Shown: in pieces, positions 2,302-46,904 of the stretch
Layout: every line of letters starts with the position of its first letter
Position numbering within the stretch: position 1 is the first letter of the stretch
Virus record (IMG/VR): IMGVR_UViG_3300037470_000539
Location: 1 to 49,425 of that record
Length of the DNA stretch: 49,425 bases
Source: a virus
Lineage: Duplodnaviria; Caudoviricetes
Reading direction: 5' to 3' (one strand)
Position numbers and translations under genes: made by a program
The notes under the pieces: model-generated
Told to the model about the DNA's origin: nothing
Seen by the model: the letters and a program-made list of their open reading frames with translations, nothing else
Database searches by the model: none

Positions 2302-3495
2302 GTGAGACAGCCCGAGCGCCTTCGCATCCTGGGGGCCACGGCTCAGACGGAGCGCGGCCCGGTTGCGCTCAGGCGCCACGATTCGATCCCCGACGACCTC
2401 CTGCCAGGCGAGCGGGAGCGCCTCGACTACGCGATCGAGCCGGTGCCCGGTCCCTACGCCGCCGTCGACATCTTCACCACGCAGCCGCACTACTTCGACC
2501 ACGTAGCGCCGGTCTCCCGCGCCCTCCAGGCCCCGATCCAATGCCCCGAGGGCCTCGCACGCCGGCGCGGCCACCTTGCCCCCACCGCGCCCTACAACGG
2601 CTCTCACGCTGTTCGCAACCACGACACCGCTCTCGTCATGGGCCCGGCCGACATCAGGACGGCCGTGCGCTTCGGCTGGAAGCGGATCGCCTACCTCTGC
2701 CACGGCATCGGCCAGGACTACAACCGGCTCCTCTCCGCCGCGGCGCCGGGCGAAAACATTCCCTGGGACAAGGTCGACGTCGTGCTGCTCCCCTCCTACT
2801 TCGCCGAGAAGCGGTTCCAGCCGCTCTGCCCGGCGGCCGAGAAGATCGTCGTCGGGCAGCCGAAGCTCGATGAGCTGAGCGCCCTCCCTCACCCCCAGAC
2901 ACGCACCGCCGCGCTCAGCTTCCGCTGGTCGCATCAGCGGGCGCCCGAAGCGAAAGGCGCGATCGACCACTACCGGGACGGGCTCGCACAGGTCGCCGCC
3001 TACGCCGCCGCGCACGGGATCGACCTACTCGGCCACGGCCACCCGCGCATCTTCGGCAACCTGAAGACCGTCTACAGCAACGCGGGCATCGAGCCGGTCG
3101 CCGACTTCGCCGACGTCGTGCGCCGCGCCGGCGTCTACGCCTGCGACAACTCCTCGACCCTGTTCGAGTTCGCCGCCCTCGACCGCCCCGTCGTCGTGAT
3201 GAACGCCCCCTGGTACCGGCGCACCGTCAACCACGGCGGGCGCTTCTGGGACTGGGCCGATGTGGGCGAGCAGGTCGACAGCCCCGCCGCGCTCGCGCAG
3301 GCCATCGCCCGCGCCTTCGATGACCCGACCGCCGAGAGCCGCCGGCGAGTCGTGGCGGAGGTGCTGCCCCGCGCAGACGGCAGAGCCGCTGAGCGGGCCG
3401 CTGAGGCGCTGGTCGAGCGGTTCCCGGCCGAACCCCGCCCAGCTACCGCCCAGCCCCTCCAGGGGCATCGGGCGGCGGCTACGATGGCCCTGTGA
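2302..3495 (+). CDS. CDP-glycerol glycerophosphotransferase (TagB/TagF-like) / GT-B fold transferase
   Basis: Motifs 'HGI', 'VVGQPKLD', 'GHP', 'ACDNSSTLFEFAALDRPVV', 'DGRAAERAAE'. Confidence 0.7.
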   Translation: MRQPERLRILGATAQTERGPVALRRHDSIPDDLLPGERERLDYAIEPVPGPYAAVDIFTTQPHYFDHVAPVSRALQAPIQCPEGLARRRGHLAPTAPYNGSHAVRNHDTALVMGPADIRTAVRFGWKRIAYLCHGIGQDYNRLLSAAAPGENIPWDKVDVVLLPSYFAEKRFQPLCPAAEKIVVGQPKLDELSALPHPQTRTAALSFRWSHQRAPEAKGAIDHYRDGLAQVAAYAAAHGIDLLGHGHPRIFGNLKTVYSNAGIEPVADFADVVRRAGVYACDNSSTLFEFAALDRPVVVMNAPWYRRTVNHGGRFWDWADVGEQVDSPAALAQAIARAFDDPTAESRRRVVAEVLPRADGRAAERAAEALVERFPAEPRPATAQPLQGHRAAATMAL

Positions 3496-20933: not shown

Positions 20934-20963
20934 TTGACACGCGTCCACTAGTTCTGTTACCTT
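20931..20963 (+). promoter_or_regulatory. operator-promoter copy 1
   Basis: TAGTTGACACGCGTCCACTA imperfect palindrome containing -35 TTGACA (20934); TGnTACCTT -10 (20958). Confidence 0.85.
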
Positions 20964-21001: not shown

Positions 21002-21442
21002 ATGTCCGCCACCGCGTCGCCGCCGCATGATCTCGACGTCGTCAAGGCGCTCAACCACCCGCTGCGCCAACGCATCCTCGCGCACCTAGACCACCCGACC
21101 GCCAGAGTCCAGGCGAGCCCGGTCAGAATGGCGGAGGCGCTCGACGCATCGCTCGGCGACATCAGCTACCACGTCAAGGTGCTGCGGGATCTCGGCGCCG
21201 TCGAGCTCGCGACGACCAGGCCGCGCCGCGGTGCCGTCGAGCACTTCTACCGCCTGACCGGGAAGGTGCGCTGCAACGGCAAGCTCGACTGGCACGACCT
21301 CGGCCGGCTGCCCGAGCCGGTGAGATCAATCATCCGCCATGCGCTCGAGGCGCGCGACGAGCTGCTCTCCGACGGCGAGACCGGCATGTGCGAGCGCGAC
21401 GAGGACGCCTGGCTCACCGACCTCTTGAAGGTGCTGGGCTGA
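21002..21442 (+). CDS. ArsR/SmtB-like winged-HTH regulator (candidate repressor)
   Basis: 'KALNHPLRQRIL...ASP..MAEAL...ISYHVKVLRDLGAVEL..TRPRRGAVEHFYRL'. Confidence 0.85.
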   Translation: MSATASPPHDLDVVKALNHPLRQRILAHLDHPTARVQASPVRMAEALDASLGDISYHVKVLRDLGAVELATTRPRRGAVEHFYRLTGKVRCNGKLDWHDLGRLPEPVRSIIRHALEARDELLSDGETGMCERDEDAWLTDLLKVLG

Positions 21443-27807: not shown

Positions 27808-28084
27808 GAAAAAGGGCTACGAGTACCGCGTCCTGGTGATGGAGTTGCCGGGCGCCAAGGAGTTCAACGCCGGCACCGCCGGCTCCGTGCGGTTCAAGTC
27901 GCTCGGCACCTTCGAGGCGCGCACGCCTGAGGACGCGGTAGAGCAGGCCGGGCGCCAGCACGACTTCCCCGACGGCTCCGAGCTGGTCGCGGTCGCGCTC
28001 TCCAACTGGCACGAGCGCGTCATCGCGGTCGAGACACGCCGCGACGTGACCGCCCGGAAGAAGGAACCCGCCGGTGACGCTTGA
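27800..28084 (+). CDS. hypothetical protein
   Basis: Coupled in operon. Confidence 0.6.
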   Translation: MAEKKGYEYRVLVMELPGAKEFNAGTAGSVRFKSLGTFEARTPEDAVEQAGRQHDFPDGSELVAVALSNWHERVIAVETRRDVTARKKEPAGDA

Positions 28085-28445
28085 GCTGACCGACTGGCTA
28101 CGCCGCAACTTGGCGGCGCGTGCGGCCGCTGAAGCGCCTGAGGAGGCCTGTGGGCTGATCGGTCGCGCGCGCAACGGCTGCCTGGGCCTATGGGTGGCGG
28201 AGAACAGCGCAGAGGACCCGCAGGCGAGCTTCGAGATCCGCGCCGACCACCTGCTCGAGCTTCTGCGGGCGATAGACATGCACGGCGAAACGCTCGCCGG
28301 CGTCTACCACTCCCACCCGCACGGGATCGCGGAGCCGAGCGTCGCCGACCGCCAGACGGCGCGACTGTGGCCGGGCCTGACGTGGGTCATCGTCGGCATC
28401 GGATCAGGCGAGCCCGAGTTCTGGAGCGGGGTGCTGGTGCCATGA
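28074..28445 (+). CDS. JAB/MPN (Mov34) metallo-isopeptidase
   Basis: 'PEEACGLI...YHSHP....PSVAD' complete JAMM motif. Confidence 0.9.
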   Translation: MTLELTDWLRRNLAARAAAEAPEEACGLIGRARNGCLGLWVAENSAEDPQASFEIRADHLLELLRAIDMHGETLAGVYHSHPHGIAEPSVADRQTARLWPGLTWVIVGIGSGEPEFWSGVLVP

Positions 28446-34106: not shown

Positions 34107-34513
34107 TGCCTAATCGCGGCCGTGTCGTCAACGTCGGCGCCGGCCCGCCCGATGAGGGCTGCGAGCGCGACACCTGCCCCAGATGCGGCAGAGAGCGCTG
34201 GGAGCTGATCGTCGTCCCCGGCTGCTTCTACTGTGACCGCTGCAAAGTGGCGAGTCCCGGCCCGAATGAAAGACCGCCCGAGCCGCCCAGAGGCGAGCAG
34301 ATGGAGCATTCCTCAACCGCCTACCCCGGCCAACCGATCAAGGGCAAGGAGCTGCATCGGATCGGAGAGGCGCTGGGGTTGATTGGGGAGAGAGGGAGCG
34401 AGGAGCGGTGCGGAGGGAAGCCGGGCAAGCCTCACACGGTGCGGATCGCTCACGATCCGTGCGTCTGTCCCGGCTGCCCCGACTGCCAACCAGAACAAGG
34501 AGGAGCCGGATGA
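34106..34513 (+). CDS. Zn-finger protein, apparently chimeric (5' half is repeat copy 1)
   Basis: TGATG start; CPRC...CDRC, then a foreign C-terminus with CVCPGCPDC. Confidence 0.55.
   Translation: MPNRGRVVNVGAGPPDEGCERDTCPRCGRERWELIVVPGCFYCDRCKVASPGPNERPPEPPRGEQMEHSSTAYPGQPIKGKELHRIGEALGLIGERGSEERCGGKPGKPHTVRIAHDPCVCPGCPDCQPEQGGAG
34122..34306 (+). repeat. 185-bp exact direct repeat, copy 1
   Basis: Identical to 35810-35994 on base-by-base reading. Confidence 0.95.
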
Positions 34514-35809: not shown

Positions 35810-35994
35810 GTGTCGTCAACGTCGGCGCCGGCCCGCCCGATGAGGGCTGCGAGCGCGACACCTGCCCCAGATGCGGCAGAGAGCGCTGGGAGCTGATCGT
35901 CGTCCCCGGCTGCTTCTACTGTGACCGCTGCAAAGTGGCGAGTCCCGGCCCGAATGAAAGACCGCCCGAGCCGCCCAGAGGCGAGCAGATGGAG
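35810..35994 (+). repeat. 185-bp exact direct repeat, copy 2 (retains the presumed original 3' end of the Zn-finger gene, stop 36006)
   Basis: Identical to 34122-34306. Confidence 0.95.
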
Positions 35995-36003
35995 TTGGCG
36001 GCT

Positions 36004-36036
36004 TAGTTGACACGCGGCCAGTAGTCGTGTAGAACT
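36004..36036 (+). promoter_or_regulatory. operator-promoter copy 4 (drives the RAMP-like operon)
   Basis: TAGTTGACACGCGGCCAGTA; TTGACA 36007, 17-bp spacer, TAGAAC(T) 36030. Confidence 0.8.
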
Positions 36037-36105
36037 GGCGCCGACCAAGCAAAAGCCCCCGCACCGTTCGAGCGGCCGGGGGCAGAACACCAGGAGGTTC
36101 CCCTG

Positions 36106-36771
36106 ATGTCGAAGGCAAACGGTAGTTCCACGAAAGCACCCCCTCGCTCAGAGCCGGATTCGCCCCCGCAGATCGAGATTGACCGCATCGCAGTTGGGCG
36201 GATGCGCGTGCCGATCGTCGGCGATTCCCCGCTGATCGTCCACCGTTTCTCGGAGAAGGCGAAAAAGAGCATGCTCGACAACATGCAGGGGAAGCGGACG
36301 CCCAAGAGAGCGAAGGACCCCGTAGCCGAGTTCGAGGGGAGCTTCTATCGCTTTGAGGATGGCCGCCCCGGTTTCCCGATCCTCGCGTTCAAGGCAGCCA
36401 CCGTGTCGGCGGCGCGTTTCTACGGCAAGGAAGTGACGATGACCGCCTTGCGCCAGTACCTCTTCTTCCGCGGCGATCCGGGGACCGATGGGGTCTCCCT
36501 GGCGCCAATCGAAGGCGAGGCCACGATGCGCGAGGACGTTGTCCGTGTCGGCAAAGGCGGGACTGATCTTCGCTACCGCGCCCAGTTCCGCGAGTGGGCG
36601 ACGGTCCTCGACGTCACCTACGTCAAGTCGGCGCTGACGCAGGGCTCGGTGCTCTCGCTGATCGACGCTGGCGGTGTCGGTGTCGGCGTCGGCGAGTGGC
36701 GGCCGGAGCGCAAAGGCGACAACGGCATGTACCACGTCGATCTCGATGCAGAAGTCGAGGTGCTGTCGTGA
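36106..36771 (+). CDS. standalone Cas7/RAMP-like protein
   Basis: N-terminal strand 'VPIVGDSPLIVH', 'GFP..AFKAA...AA' helix, 'LRYRAQFREW...LDVTY', C-terminal Gly-rich loop 'AGGVGVGVGEWRP..KGDNGMYHV'; AGGAGG RBS. Confidence 0.7.
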   Translation: MSKANGSSTKAPPRSEPDSPPQIEIDRIAVGRMRVPIVGDSPLIVHRFSEKAKKSMLDNMQGKRTPKRAKDPVAEFEGSFYRFEDGRPGFPILAFKAATVSAARFYGKEVTMTALRQYLFFRGDPGTDGVSLAPIEGEATMREDVVRVGKGGTDLRYRAQFREWATVLDVTYVKSALTQGSVLSLIDAGGVGVGVGEWRPERKGDNGMYHVDLDAEVEVLS

Positions 36772-37202
36772 GCGATCTCCGAACGGAGTTGCAAGCGGTC
36801 CACGACCGGAACGGCAGGCTCACTCCCGCGATCCTTGTCGAAGAGGCGCGCCCTAAACAGCACCCTCTGCACCCGGTCATCTTCGATCGGCCGGTGAAGG
36901 ACGCTGCCGAGGCCTACTATCGGTCTAGGGCGCAAGAGGTCATCCAATCGGTGAAGATCACCTATCGGACCGACCCCGACGCTGAGCCCAAGTCCACTCG
37001 GGCCTTCGTCGCCGTCCAACGAGGAGGCACCGACAATCGGGGCTTCGTTTACGAGCCGGCGGAGCAGGTTGCTCGGGATGATGCCGCGCTGGAGGCTGTC
37101 CTCGACGAGATGCAGCGCGACTGGAAGATGCTCAAAGCCCGCTACTCGCGCTTCGCGGAGTTCGCTGAGCTGGTGCGCGAAGACAGCTTGGTTGCGGCGT
37201 AA
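36768..37202 (+). CDS. helical accessory protein coupled to the RAMP-like gene
   Basis: GTGA overlap; 'GRLTP..LVEEAR...HPLH...AAEAYYR..A..VI.SV'. Confidence 0.7.
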   Translation: MSDLRTELQAVHDRNGRLTPAILVEEARPKQHPLHPVIFDRPVKDAAEAYYRSRAQEVIQSVKITYRTDPDAEPKSTRAFVAVQRGGTDNRGFVYEPAEQVARDDAALEAVLDEMQRDWKMLKARYSRFAEFAELVREDSLVAA

Positions 37203-37205
37203 AAA

Positions 37206-37523
37206 GGTAGGCGAGGCATGGCCGGGCTCGGCCGGGTGGGGCGAGGTTCGGCAGGCAGGGCATGGCGCGGCAGGGTGCGGCACCGGTGCGGCGCGGCAGG
37301 GTTCGGCAGGCAGGTCAAGGCGTGACGCGGCAGGGCGGGGTTCGGCTTGGCCCGGCAGGCCAGGCAAGGTGTGGCGGGTCCGGGCATGAAGCGGCTTGGC
37401 ATGGTGGGGCAGGCGTGGCGCGGCAGGGCCGGGCTCGGTGCGGCAGGCGAGGCACGGTTGGGCAAGGCCGGGTTCGGCATGGTGGGGCGAGGCAGTCTTG
37501 GCGCGGCTGGGCTCGGCAGGTTT
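37206..37523 (+). ncRNA. GGY-NN pentamer array in 7 blocks separated by GGYA tetramers; candidate guide-RNA locus
   Basis: 56 units in blocks (51 begin GGC/GGT; one is 6 nt) plus 8 GGYA tetramers; starts 3 nt after the accessory gene stop and ends at the terS promoter. Confidence 0.75.
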
Positions 37524-37550
37524 GAGTCTGTCGAGTCCGCCGCCTATACT
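37522..37550 (+). promoter_or_regulatory. sigma70-type promoter for leaderless terS
   Basis: TTGAGT-N17-TATACT, GTG 6 nt downstream. Confidence 0.7.
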
Positions 37551-37556
37551 CGCCCC

Positions 37557-38027
37557 GTGACCGATACGGCAGGGACACTAAAAAAAGGCTCGTGGCAGGC
37601 GAAGTTCATCGACGCATTCCGCGACACCAGCCTCGTCACCGAAGCGGCAAGGGTCTGCGGCAAGGGCCGCTCCACGGTCTACCGCGAGCGCCAGCGCAAC
37701 GAGGACTTCGCTCTCGCGTGGGCCGAGGCCGAGGAGTGGGTGACGGAAGAGCTTGAGCAGGAAGCCAAGCGCCGTGCGCTCGAGGGCTCCGACACGCTGC
37801 TGATCTTCCTGCTCAAGGCCAAACGCCCCCTCGTCTATCGCGAGTCGGTCAAGCTGGACCACGGGGGCAAGATCGGCGTCCAAGTCGAGGAAGGGGTGAA
37901 CGAGGCGATTAGTGACTACCTTGGCGACATTCAGCGGCTTGCCGAGAGACTGGGAGCGCTGGCCGATCGAGGCGAAGCTGACGCTCCTGGGCGGGCTGAG
38001 GGCGAACCTCTGGCGGCTTCAGAGTAA
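37557..38027 (+). CDS. terS: terminase small subunit
   Basis: 'FIDAF....VTEAARVCG.GRSTVYRER...FALAW.EA...LE.EA.RRA..GSDTLLIFLLKAKRP..YRE'; upstream of terL. Confidence 0.85.
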   Translation: MTDTAGTLKKGSWQAKFIDAFRDTSLVTEAARVCGKGRSTVYRERQRNEDFALAWAEAEEWVTEELEQEAKRRALEGSDTLLIFLLKAKRPLVYRESVKLDHGGKIGVQVEEGVNEAISDYLGDIQRLAERLGALADRGEADAPGRAEGEPLAASE

Positions 38028-39369
38028 CCCCGGCCAGTTGCCGCCTCCCGAGTGGGGTGCAGGCACGCGGATCTGGTACGCGCAGGGCGGCCGCGGGAGC
38101 GGGAAGACTCGCGCGGGTGCTGAGGCATTCGCCGAACTCATCCTGAACAACCCCCCCGGCGACTACGCCTGCATGGGGCCGACATTCGGCGATGCCGTCG
38201 CGATGATCGAGCACCGCAAGTCGGGGTTGGAGAAAGTGCTTGGTCCCGCCGCGTCGCAATGGAATCGCTCCAAAGGGGAGCTGTACGTGGCGAACGGATC
38301 GACCGTCTACTGCGACGGCGCCGACGATGGTGGCGAGCGCATTCAGGGGAAAGGACTGCGCGGCGCCTGGGCCGATGAGATCGGGCTCTGGAGAGCGGTA
38401 AAGACGAAGAAGGGCGAGACCAGAGGCGGGATGCAGGCGTGGAAAGAGTCGCTCGCGTTCGCTGTGCGTGAGTCGCCGGCGCTGATAGTCGCGACCGGCA
38501 CACCGAAGGGAAACAGGGGCGTCGTCAAGTTCCTGCGTGAGCGCCCGCCTGGGAGAGTCGTTTTCACGTACCCGAGCCTCGCCGACAACCGCTACAACCT
38601 GGAGCCGGAGATCGTTGCGGAGTGGGAGGCGGATTACGGCGGCACCCGCCTCGGCCGGCAAGAGCTCGAAGGCAGAGTGCTCGAGGACGTGGAGGGCGCG
38701 CTCTGGACGCTGGCGATGATCGAGGACAACCGCTGGCCCGACCTCGCCGAGCTGCGCGAAGCGCTCGACCGCACGCAAGGCAGCCGCCGCGTGGTCGCCG
38801 TCGATCCCGCCATCTCCTCGGGCGAGACCTCAGACGAGACCGGCATCGTGGCCGCGGCGCGCCTGCCCGGCGACTCCGACATCGTGGGCCGCTACGTGTA
38901 CGACGAGGATGCGCGCCGCGTCCCTCACGGGGCGGTACTGGCTGACCGCTCCGGTCGCTATTCCCCGCAAGGGTGGGCTGAGGCCGCAATCGCGCTCTAC
39001 CACGAACTGAGATGCGACCGCATCATCTACGAGAGAAACCAGGGCGGCGAGATGGTGAAGGCGACCCTGCACGCCGTTGACCCCAACGTGCCGCTCACCG
39101 ATGTCTGGGCCTCGCGCGGCAAGACCACGCGCGCTGAGCCGATCTCCGCCCTCTACGAGCAGAACCGCATCCACCATCTCGGCTTCTTCCCCGAGCTCGA
39201 GAGCGAACAGACAGCGTGGGTGCCGGGCGAACCTTCGCCGTCGCGCATGGACGGGCTGGTGTGGGCGTTGACGGACCTGTTCGGCAGCAGCTTGCAGATG
39301 ACGGCCGTGGCGGAGCCGCTCGTCAGCGCGCCGGGCCTGACCACCGATCTCCTCGACCGCCAGATGTAG
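37912..39369 (+). CDS. terL: terminase large subunit
   Basis: Walker A 'GGRGSGKT', Walker B 'AWADE', 'ATGTP', nuclease 'VVAVDPA...DETGI', 'ERNQGG', 'K..RAEP'. Confidence 0.95.
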   Translation: MTTLATFSGLPRDWERWPIEAKLTLLGGLRANLWRLQSNPGQLPPPEWGAGTRIWYAQGGRGSGKTRAGAEAFAELILNNPPGDYACMGPTFGDAVAMIEHRKSGLEKVLGPAASQWNRSKGELYVANGSTVYCDGADDGGERIQGKGLRGAWADEIGLWRAVKTKKGETRGGMQAWKESLAFAVRESPALIVATGTPKGNRGVVKFLRERPPGRVVFTYPSLADNRYNLEPEIVAEWEADYGGTRLGRQELEGRVLEDVEGALWTLAMIEDNRWPDLAELREALDRTQGSRRVVAVDPAISSGETSDETGIVAAARLPGDSDIVGRYVYDEDARRVPHGAVLADRSGRYSPQGWAEAAIALYHELRCDRIIYERNQGGEMVKATLHAVDPNVPLTDVWASRGKTTRAEPISALYEQNRIHHLGFFPELESEQTAWVPGEPSPSRMDGLVWALTDLFGSSLQMTAVAEPLVSAPGLTTDLLDRQM

Positions 39370-39985: not shown

Positions 39986-40249
39986 ATGGACCCCGAGCAC
40001 AAGACCCGCCCCGCCGAGCACGCCGGCGATGTCCCGCAGACGCCGGCTCAAGGCCCCTGCCCTACCGAGGAAGCTGCTCTCTCGTGGATCGAGCCCTCGA
40101 TCACGCATTGCAAGTTCGTCGCCAGATCGGCGCCGACGCGGGAGAACGCGCTCGCGCTCACGAAGCTCGAGGAGGCGCGCTTCTGGGCCCGCCACGACCT
40201 CGAGCTCAAGCTGGAGGCGAAGGGAGAGGATCAGCCCGCCGCGGCGTAA
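39986..40249 (+). CDS. Tad1/Acb2-like helical-hairpin protein (candidate signalling-nucleotide sponge)
   Basis: 'TRENALALTKLEEARFWA' motif; AAAGGAG RBS. Confidence 0.6.
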   Translation: MDPEHKTRPAEHAGDVPQTPAQGPCPTEEAALSWIEPSITHCKFVARSAPTRENALALTKLEEARFWARHDLELKLEAKGEDQPAAA

Positions 40250-45096: not shown

Positions 45097-45605
45097 TGAT
45101 CGAAGATTTGGCCCCCCTGCTCGTCGCTCTCCTGGTCGCCGTGGTCGGCCCGTTCCTCCTGACCTGGCTGACCGGCAGGCAGCGCCGGGCCGAGAAGATG
45201 CAGGACTACAAGCGCCAAGACGAAGTTGCCGAGCGTGCGGCGCTGGTCGCGGAGAAGGCAGAGCAGGCGGCGCAGTTGCTCGTCGAGGACAACAAGCGGG
45301 TCGCCTCCCTCGCCGCGGCCGCCGCCCTGAAAACGACCGGGCAGTTGGAGAAGATCCACACCCTGGTCAACTCCAACATGACCGCCGCGATGCAGGCCGA
45401 GCTCGACGCGACGACCCGCGAGGCGGCGATGATGCGGATCGTGATCGGCCTGCGGGCCGAGAAGGGCGACCCTCCCTCGCCGGATGCCACCGCCGCGCTT
45501 GCCCGAACCGATCAACGAATCGGGGAGCTACGGGCGGCCCTCGAGGATCGGCACGAGGCGCAGGCGAAGGTCGACGCCGCCGACTTCGCCGACCGTAAAA
45601 CGTGA
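45096..45605 (+). CDS. membrane-anchored coiled-coil protein
   Basis: N-terminal TM; 'IHTLVNSNMT'. Confidence 0.65.
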   Translation: MIEDLAPLLVALLVAVVGPFLLTWLTGRQRRAEKMQDYKRQDEVAERAALVAEKAEQAAQLLVEDNKRVASLAAAAALKTTGQLEKIHTLVNSNMTAAMQAELDATTREAAMMRIVIGLRAEKGDPPSPDATAALARTDQRIGELRAALEDRHEAQAKVDAADFADRKT

Positions 45606-45609
45606 AACG

Positions 45610-46326
45610 GTGCGCCACTACCTCCTGACGCGCGCCGTCTACGATCCCGCTGTCTGGCCCATCGAGGCCAACCGACGGCGGCTGGAGCTGCTGCGCGGCG
45701 TCACGGCGGCCAGCCTGCGGGCCCAGACCGAGAGGCGCTGGAGGTGGGTCGTGCTCCTGCACCCCGACGACCCGCTGCTCGAGGAGCGCCAGCTCGCCTG
45801 CCAGCTCGCCGACGTCGAGGTCATCTTCCGCTACTTCAAGCCACCGCTCGGCACCTCGGCCGCGCGCTCGGCGGCGCTCGCCTACAAGTCGGCGGAGTGG
45901 CGCGAGGCCATCGCCGATCGACCGCAACCCCTGCTCACGACCCGCATCGACGACGACGACGCCTTCGACCGCCGGGCGCTGAAGTGGATCCGGCGGGCCG
46001 GGCGCGACCTGGCTCCGTCTCGCCGGCGCACCGCTCTCATCCTCCCCCGCGGCTACCGGGTCTTCGAGGGCCGCTTCAGCCTGGTCACTCACGAGCGCAA
46101 CGCGTGGGTGACGCTGCACGTTCCGGCCGGCGACGGCGCGATCGTCTACGACTTCAACCACAAGCGGATCGCCAGATACGCCGAGATCAAGCTCTTGCGC
46201 CCGACCCCTGCCTGGCTGTGGGTTCGCCACGACGACACCCTCTCGCGGCACAAGGTGGCCGCGAAGCCGGTCAGCGATTCGTTGCGGAGCCGCTTCCCCG
46301 ACGTCGACTGGGCGCTGCTCGCATGA
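45610..46326 (+). CDS. glycosyltransferase (putative rhamnosyl-transferase-like, GT-A)
   Basis: 'HYLLTR...SLRAQT...W.VLL...TTRIDDDDA'. Confidence 0.75.
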   Translation: MRHYLLTRAVYDPAVWPIEANRRRLELLRGVTAASLRAQTERRWRWVVLLHPDDPLLEERQLACQLADVEVIFRYFKPPLGTSAARSAALAYKSAEWREAIADRPQPLLTTRIDDDDAFDRRALKWIRRAGRDLAPSRRRTALILPRGYRVFEGRFSLVTHERNAWVTLHVPAGDGAIVYDFNHKRIARYAEIKLLRPTPAWLWVRHDDTLSRHKVAAKPVSDSLRSRFPDVDWALLA

Positions 46327-46904
46327 GAGGCTCGGAGCGGATCGCGAGGTTCTGGCGGCGCTATGACGCTGGGGAGTGGGAGCCCGATACGCGCGAGCTG
46401 GTCGAGGACGTGCTGTATCCGGGCGCGCTCTTCGTCGACATCGGCGCATGGATCGGGCCCGTGACGCTCTGGGCGCTCGGCTGCGGGGCGCAGGTCGTCG
46501 CGATCGAGCCCGACCCCGTGGCGCTGAAGCACCTCCGCACGATCCCCGACATCGAGATTTGGGAGGGCGCCGTCGCAACGCAGAGCGGGCGGGCGAGTCT
46601 CGTCTCGCATCGAGAGTTCGGCGCATCGGTGTCGCGGCTGACGCGGGGCGACGGCTACAAGGTCCGGACGTGGACGCTCGACGAGGTGCTGGGCGGGCGC
46701 AGACCCGCGCTCGTCAAGATCGACGTGGAGGGCTACGAGGTCGAGCTGCTGCCGAGCGTCGCGCCGCTGGTAGCCGAGATGGGCGCGACCTTGCAGGTTG
46801 CCCTGCACGGCAGAGCGGCCGACCCGGAGTGGTTCGCCGACTTCGGCCGGGTCAGCTTCCCGGCGAGCCCTCGAGGGTGCGTGGTCGCCTCGCCTATTAC
46901 TTGA
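46323..46904 (+). CDS. FkbM-family SAM methyltransferase
   Basis: 'FVDIGAWIG...VVAIEPDP...TLD...LVKIDVEGYE'. Confidence 0.88.
   Translation: MRGSERIARFWRRYDAGEWEPDTRELVEDVLYPGALFVDIGAWIGPVTLWALGCGAQVVAIEPDPVALKHLRTIPDIEIWEGAVATQSGRASLVSHREFGASVSRLTRGDGYKVRTWTLDEVLGGRRPALVKIDVEGYEVELLPSVAPLVAEMGATLQVALHGRAADPEWFADFGRVSFPASPRGCVVASPIT

Follow-up and report, generated by a model that had tools for sequence, protein, structure and literature searches.

Downstream of a gene for a RAMP/Cas7-like protein and a small accessory gene, the phage genome analysed here contains an array of GGY trinucleotides separated by two variable bases (NN), and this locus raises two questions: does it represent a new RNA-guided system, and what do its guides recognize? 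VIPR, which was published in 2026, is a CRISPR-related RNA-guided DNA silencer (10.64898/2026.04.26.720920). A preliminary description of the locus had pointed out a resemblance to VIPR, which holds, as the locus has the sequence and fold features of that system. It had also supposed that each pentamer accommodates one protein subunit, with GGY as the scaffold and NN as the information-bearing bases. This is the published VIPR mechanism: the available parts of 10.64898/2026.04.26.720920 and 10.64898/2026.04.26.720927 describe one Vipr subunit per GGYNN unit, with GGY buried and NN pairing with DNA. NN pairing skips one target base (10.64898/2026.04.26.720920). For the system of phage SUSP1, the available part of 10.64898/2026.04.26.720927 reports filament assembly in the 3'-to-5' direction, and the available parts of the same two papers and of 10.64898/2026.10.15.759431 report an R-loop triplex, silencing from either strand and a need for Vap1 in infection.

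The vipr and vap genes and their setting

The window is the whole virus record of 49,425 bp, which is 96% complete and has a GC content of 68%. It contains genes for capsid, portal, tail sheath, tape measure, baseplate and terminase, and the phage is therefore contractile-tailed; no integrase was found among the 58 ORFs scanned. The host is likely to be an actinomycete, because all 111 of the 111 phage records matched in a capsid-protein search are actinophages, the closest cultured Vipr homologues (50-57% identity) come from Gordonia and Mycobacterium smegmatis phages, and the named database homologues come from Thermoactinospora and a Nocardioidaceae genome. One public run, a sediment metagenome that may be the source sample, contains the phage DNA, and its contigs showed zero differences from the phage sequence over 36000-37083 and 37098-38400; none of the public runs listed was an RNA dataset containing this stretch. 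The features of the locus and its downstream neighbour are as follows.

36005..36036, + strand: copy 4 of a phage promoter motif (TTGACA-17-TAGAAC), with putative promoter function
36106..36771, + strand: vipr, encoding a RAMP/Cas7-like protein of 221 aa with the C-terminal end AGGVGVGVGEWRPERKGDNGMYHV
36768..37202, + strand: vap, accessory gene, 144 aa, PHROG 15946
37206..37523, + strand: staggered GGY/NN vrRNA array, starting 3 nt past the vap TAA
37522..37550, + strand: predicted terS promoter (TTGAGT-17-TATACT)
37557-38027, + strand: terS, with a putative leaderless start

The motif TTGACACGCG occurs in six copies, all on the + strand (at 20934, 24844, 33840, 36007, 42367 and 46901), in the form TTGACACGCG(T/G)CC followed after 17-18 nt by a -10 box, and these co-oriented copies form a putative phage promoter or operator family. 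The copy upstream of vipr is the fourth, as had been described; its -10 box (TAGAAC) departs furthest from the consensus among the six copies, and it likely drives expression of vipr, vap and the array. Behind copy 1 lies an HTH gene (21002-21439) that is a candidate regulator, and a GC-rich hairpin lies within the vipr leader at 36055-36083 (z -2.3). An exact 185-nt direct duplication (34122-34306 and 35810-35994, 1688 bp apart), the second copy of which stops 11 nt upstream of promoter copy 4, may be a recombination scar of the gain or rearrangement of the VIPR cassette. Elsewhere in the genome, an 87-aa ORF at 39986-40249 has a weak Acb2/Tad1 hairpin match (E 3.5e-5, below the Pfam cut-off) and could possibly be an anti-defence nucleotide sponge, and a stand-alone JAB-domain gene (28074-28445), a glycerophosphotransferase-like gene (2302-3495) and rhamnosyl-transferase and FkbM methyltransferase genes (45484-46904) are possible virion or surface modification genes.

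The 221-aa gene with a Gly-rich end had been read correctly, and so had its product as RAMP/Cas7-like. The AlphaFold model of Vipr (pLDDT 83) contains the RRM core, thumb and G-loop of a stand-alone RAMP homologue; its top Foldseek matches were RAMP chains of type III CRISPR systems (Csm/Cmr; best E 1.7e-5), and VIA-align against type III CRISPR chains gave a best Z of 10.6 (rmsd 3.8, 154 residues aligned). SUSP1 Vipr was the best match of a single-sequence PDB search (E 0.0033) and the sole match of a profile search (E 7.4e-7). The available part of 10.64898/2026.04.26.720927 names H17, R138, D177, W178 and R179 as the GGY-binding residues of SUSP1 Vipr. R158, E197, W198 and R199 of the present protein were aligned to the last four in the PDB sequence match, H46 corresponds to H17 by manual alignment to a Felixounavirus Vipr, and all five residues are conserved in at least 90% of 59 aligned homologues.

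The accessory gene was described as coupled to vipr through a GTGA overlap and as helical. The coupling is as stated, with the start at 36768 overlapping the vipr end at 36771, and the gene encodes a conserved protein; its predicted structure, however, is alpha+beta rather than purely helical. Foldseek gave no match to the Vap model at E 0.001, the best VIA match (Z 4.6) involved the C-terminal helices alone, no catalytic family or known fold was found and the Atlas clusters that contain Vap carry no family name. A Pfam search matched no family for either Vipr or Vap. As no profile similarity was found to the type II-like accessory genes of the Felixounavirus and LESphi2 loci, Vap would appear to belong to a different protein family from SUSP1 Vap1.

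A scan of viral contigs with the single vipr sequence returned one locus only and an alignment was required to find more; in all, 2911 Vipr homologues were found. We surveyed the best 80 of 539 viral loci and the best 80 of 542 metagenome loci, some of which are duplicates. A same-strand array lay in the fetched flank of 74/80 viral and 60/80 metagenome loci, with one opposite-strand array in each set, and vap was present in 68/80 of each. Among loci with at least 1 kb downstream, arrays were present in 74/77 viral and 33/36 metagenome cases, and all 16 NN values occur across the 440 clade guides that were parsed, so most homologues are indeed accompanied by GGYNN arrays with differing NN. Three of the loci (L002, L003 and L004) are those of the cultured phages Pipp, ODay and Saal, which have the same order of vipr, vap and staggered array; the Pipp annotation lists its array as a hypothetical protein (gene 43), which is likely an error. 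Very long arrays, of 1-2.4 kb or more, were seen in L020 (3193-5614), L057, L066 and L128. Six vipr homologues with at least 1 kb downstream (L067, L159, L163, L070, L038 and L150) had no detected GGY array and possibly carry non-canonical repeats.

Since SUSP1 Vipr is the sole PDB profile match, the fold is that of a RAMP, and arrays and vap lie beside most homologues, the locus belongs to the published VIPR family and is not a new system. The reported lack of cas1 and of a canonical repeat-spacer array was also borne out: a Cas1 search of the genome was negative (the control matched in 7/14 genomes), as was an Rfam search, no Cas family was found among the 58 ORFs scanned, and a repeat-spacer array and cas operon are absent.

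Layout of the guide array

The array occupies 37206 to 37523, i.e. the ~318 bp beginning 3 nt after the 144-aa gene that had been described, and it ends, as described, at the terS promoter. It is unique in the phage genome when both strands are scanned, and 10 GGY are in register in its best stretch of 12 units, compared with maxima of 4-7 in 100 sequences simulated with the same dinucleotide composition. The near-strict 5-nt periodicity claimed for it as one tract does not hold, because eight -1 slips (GGTA at 37206 and GGCA at 37250, 37305, 37354, 37408, 37442, 37491 and 37515) and one +1 slip (37284) break the register. The slips delimit segments of 44, 55, 49, 54, 34, 49 and 24 nt, corresponding to 8, 10, 9, 10, 6, 9 and 4 units, and six of the seven spacings equal 5n+4. 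These one-base interruptions mean that the array consists of several guides rather than one tract, and it is composed of six guides and a terminal hairpin in the published 'staggered' layout. The preliminary description had seen the repeat and missed both the guide boundaries and the one-base target skip.

37210..37254, + strand: guide 1, 8 units
37254..37309, + strand: guide 2, 10 units and one extra base
37309..37358, + strand: guide 3, 9 units
37358..37412, + strand: guide 4, 10 units
37412..37446, + strand: guide 5, 6 units
37446..37495, + strand: guide 6, 9 units
37500..37546, + strand: terminal hairpin, with the terS -35 box in its loop

Back-to-back guides overlap by 1 nt with no tail between them, 51 of the 56 guide pentamers have a canonical GGY, and the guides have 6-10 units compared with 9-16 in published systems. 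The last four array units form a hairpin with the sequence that follows them (z -4.6, 0/200 shuffles), and because of this pairing the last segment is likely an end structure rather than a guide. A downstream hairpin was rejected as a general feature of the clade, as z was below -3 in 13/95 arrays. The same punctuation is found in the homologue arrays, where 866/1115 four-base steps are GGCA, slip spacings peak at 44, 49, 54 and 59 nt and 125/139 array-bearing loci have at least two GGCA slips. In 63 clade arrays (from L002-L164 and this phage), runs of three and four pentamers recur in different guides of one array more often than by chance (19 vs 5.7 and 6 vs 0.2, respectively; this phage's array alone is not significant), which hints that guides diversify by recombination inside the array.

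The repeat could instead form a structural RNA, act at the DNA level as part of the terS promoter or extend the N terminus of TerS with low-complexity sequence, and indeed the complete array gives a better fold than shuffles do (z -3.05) and an open frame that begins at a TTG (37347) continues into terS. However, single guides fold no better than chance, homologue arrays adjoin vipr and not terS, and the grammar is that of published vrRNAs with NN strings that decode to real targets, which together make this alternative very improbable. For terS itself, TANNNT is an actinobacterial -10 box and leaderless starts occur in actinobacteria.

Predicted targets of the guides

Guides were decoded by the published rule, in which each NN pairs with the target and one target base is skipped. 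Read in this way, guide 6 spells ETWNRS(I/M)GE, and it is predicted to target the codons for (E/D)TWNRS(I/M)GE in the terL genes of sibling phages. The exact pattern of units 2-9 was found at 24 viral loci, 23 of which are terL, matched on TWNRS(I/M)GE, all in sense orientation and with the third codon position skipped; six of the terL loci additionally match unit 1, which was not part of the search, although two of these are apparently duplicates. One complete 51.6-kb phage (G003) is syntenic with the present one, has 29 open frames in common with it (some overlapping; 32-67% identity) and matches guide 6 at 18/18. No vipr was found in G003, in a search with a positive control, or in five further guide 6-matched contigs, all of which are fragments. 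Two other relatives match at 16/18 and 14/18 (the latter is G001). The phage's own terL site (38254..38279, + strand) encodes SQWNRSKGE and matches at 13/18, i.e. 72%, which is under the 80% used as a threshold in the VIPR papers.

We also scored the 119 closest TerL proteins, which were fetched without using the guide and scored as the best case over codons. Guide 6 reached at least 80% in 73 of them, 18/18 was allowed in six, and 92 gave higher scores than the allele of the phage itself. Of the 30 nearest TerLs, only 11 reached 80%, so that guide 6 would spare the closest kin and fit the next ring out. When a separate set of terL genes was scored as DNA, guide 6 gave 16/18, which was reached by 2/1000 shuffles; in a whole-flank test 16/18 was reached by 2/30 shuffles.

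The main alternative, which we regard as unlikely, is that this is a genuine VIPR locus whose guide 6-terL match arose by chance and whose real targets lie outside the databases. In its favour, the test on terL was decided on once the guide 6 match was known, clusters of 18-23 loci arise for other guides and five of the six guides are without an established target; allowing for proteome size and five guides, our rough estimate of the upper bound is near 0.05. However, the 73 TerL matches were equalled by 0/6000 shuffles and by 0/312 other clade guides, and the perfect wobble-frame match in a syntenic sibling lies in a gene of which this phage has its own homologue.

A second alternative, slightly less likely again, is self-regulation, in which guide 6 pairs partially with the terL of the phage itself and dampens the late packaging operon for as long as the early promoter is active. 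The own site matches at 13/14 bases over the 3' seven units of guide 6, SUSP1 filaments start at the 3' end according to the available part of 10.64898/2026.04.26.720927, and the array directly adjoins the terS promoter. Against this stand the sub-threshold match of the own site and the better scores of most relatives described above; in addition, siblings without VIPR share the gene order, and terL lies within the fetched flank in only 3/164 homologue loci.

The preliminary description had named competing phages or host genes as targets. For one guide the former is supported and the latter is not: in the one genome scan made, which was for guide 6 alone, 1/7 exact matches in bacterial genomes was in terL context. 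No long contig resembling the G003 terL was found in the run that contains this phage.

Matches of the other guides were less informative, and because 16-base patterns gave from 2 matches (guide 1) to ~190 (guide 2), match count alone means little. Guide 1 has no established target; a role against vipr is unproven, as its 14/16 match on DIRYRGEF of a distant vipr was equalled by 22/500 shuffles, and both mismatches fall at conserved Tyr/Phe codons. No target was found for guide 2, whose family cluster of 23 loci among 120 matches was discounted (out of the wobble frame, with 17/20 as the best score), or for guide 3, which gave a chance-type cluster of 18 loci among 120 matches and the antisense of which resembles Vipr KDPxAxF, with no match in support. 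Guide 4 matches EKVGRIALIG of a more distant terL clade at 19/20, one of four 19/20 matches; 3/120 of its matches and 0/119 of the close TerL proteins support terL, and a target in that clade is a weak possibility. Guide 5, with 6 units, is too short for target prediction, and its 12/12 self-match at 28101 was dismissed as off the wobble frame and not significant. No guide of at least 8 units matched the phage genome above 80% (guide 2 reached exactly 16/20).

The clade guides allowed the skip itself to be compared with other spacings. Three of 370 reached at least 90% on rival vipr genes, each of them wobble-aligned under the one-base skip (L037:3127, L046:3154 and L099:3197, at 19/20, 18/20 and 15/16, respectively), compared with none for skips of 0, 2 or 3 and 0/1850 shuffles. 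As matches at this level occur only under the one-base skip, they support this code for staggered arrays, and as they continue through degenerate units (GTT, GTC, GAC, GCC), such units may still be read. At 80% there was no excess, either for rival vipr (25/370 vs 126/1850) or for terL (28/379 vs 135/1895), and the idea that clade guides are generally aimed at terL was dropped.

Proposed mode of action and relation to known systems

We therefore favour, with a probability of roughly 78%, the reading that this is a VIPR locus with a staggered array in which guide 6 is predicted to silence the terL of rival relatives, with the phage's own diverged copy likely spared. On this reading, promoter copy 4 would give a transcript of vipr, vap and the array ending at the terminal hairpin, and processing would release the guides. 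By analogy with SUSP1, Vipr would polymerise with one subunit per GGYNN, burying GGY and pairing NN with the target so that every third target base is skipped, and the GGCA slips would likely reset the filament register and mark the guide ends. In a presumably shared host, a guide 6 filament bound to the terL of a co-infecting sibling would block transcription of terL and the head genes behind it, starving the sibling of packaging and head proteins, and the owner's allele, below threshold, would escape this repression. Vap may assist silencing, as Vap1 does in SUSP1. As the first two positions of each of nine terL codons are read, synonymous changes would not be expected to escape guide 6.

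Staggered arrays with guides overlapping by 1 nt have been described (10.64898/2026.04.26.720920, Results and fig. S18 legend), and the present locus has in common with them vipr, vap, a GGY/NN array, the 1-nt overlap, phage encoding and the absence of cas1. It differs in that one guide here has a predicted natural target; the text of 10.64898/2026.04.26.720920, figures and data files aside, gives no small-RNA data or targets for staggered arrays. From its non-enzymatic vap, the locus would be of VIPR type VI or VII. With type II VIPR (Escherichia phage SUSP1 and a Pseudomonas fulva prophage; PDB 36pp) it shares a homologous Vipr, the thumb Arg, the G-loop (D/E)WR, the wobble one-base skip, targets in competing elements and a lower self-match. 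However, type II guides, like those of the Felixounavirus locus, are each followed by a conserved, structured 3' tail of ~40 nt, whereas here tail-less guides abut; the type II Vap (Felixounavirus, LESphi2) is unrelated in sequence; type II targets are a satellite recombinase or lysogeny switch rather than, as predicted here, a packaging gene of full sibling phages; and the hosts are Escherichia and Pseudomonas rather than a likely actinomycete. Class 1 CRISPR RAMPs (Cas7/Csm3/Cmr) share the RRM/RAMP fold, thumb and G-loop, but here there is no repeat-spacer array or Cas1, and the code is gapped at 5 nt rather than contiguous.

Rival-phage, vipr-directed and self-sparing guides have already been described in the available parts of 10.64898/2026.04.26.720920, 10.64898/2026.04.26.720927, 10.64898/2026.10.15.759431 and 10.64898/2026.10.21.760802. 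In the parts available, the word 'terminase' occurs in the main text of 10.64898/2026.10.15.759431 in the methods only, and not at all in the supplement of 10.64898/2026.04.26.720920 (where Data S3/S4 and figures could hold targets) or in 10.64898/2026.10.21.760802.

We consider it somewhat better than an even bet that tail-less staggered arrays are functional with the same skip code and that this phage uses a single guide as a family-wide kin-exclusion weapon while itself carrying an escape allele. If so, guide 6 spells the consensus of a conserved motif of the terminase ATPase domain and thereby covers a majority of related phages, and it would provide the first natural target for staggered arrays in the literature searched, as far as its available parts go, and a new target class, i.e. 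the DNA packaging of sibling phages. The 18/18 target and the graded alleles at 16, 14 and, for the phage itself, 13/18 form a natural test series that would measure mismatch tolerance, self/non-self discrimination and the processing of tail-less guides, and the clade is tractable, since cultured phages of Gordonia and Mycobacterium smegmatis carry close homologues.
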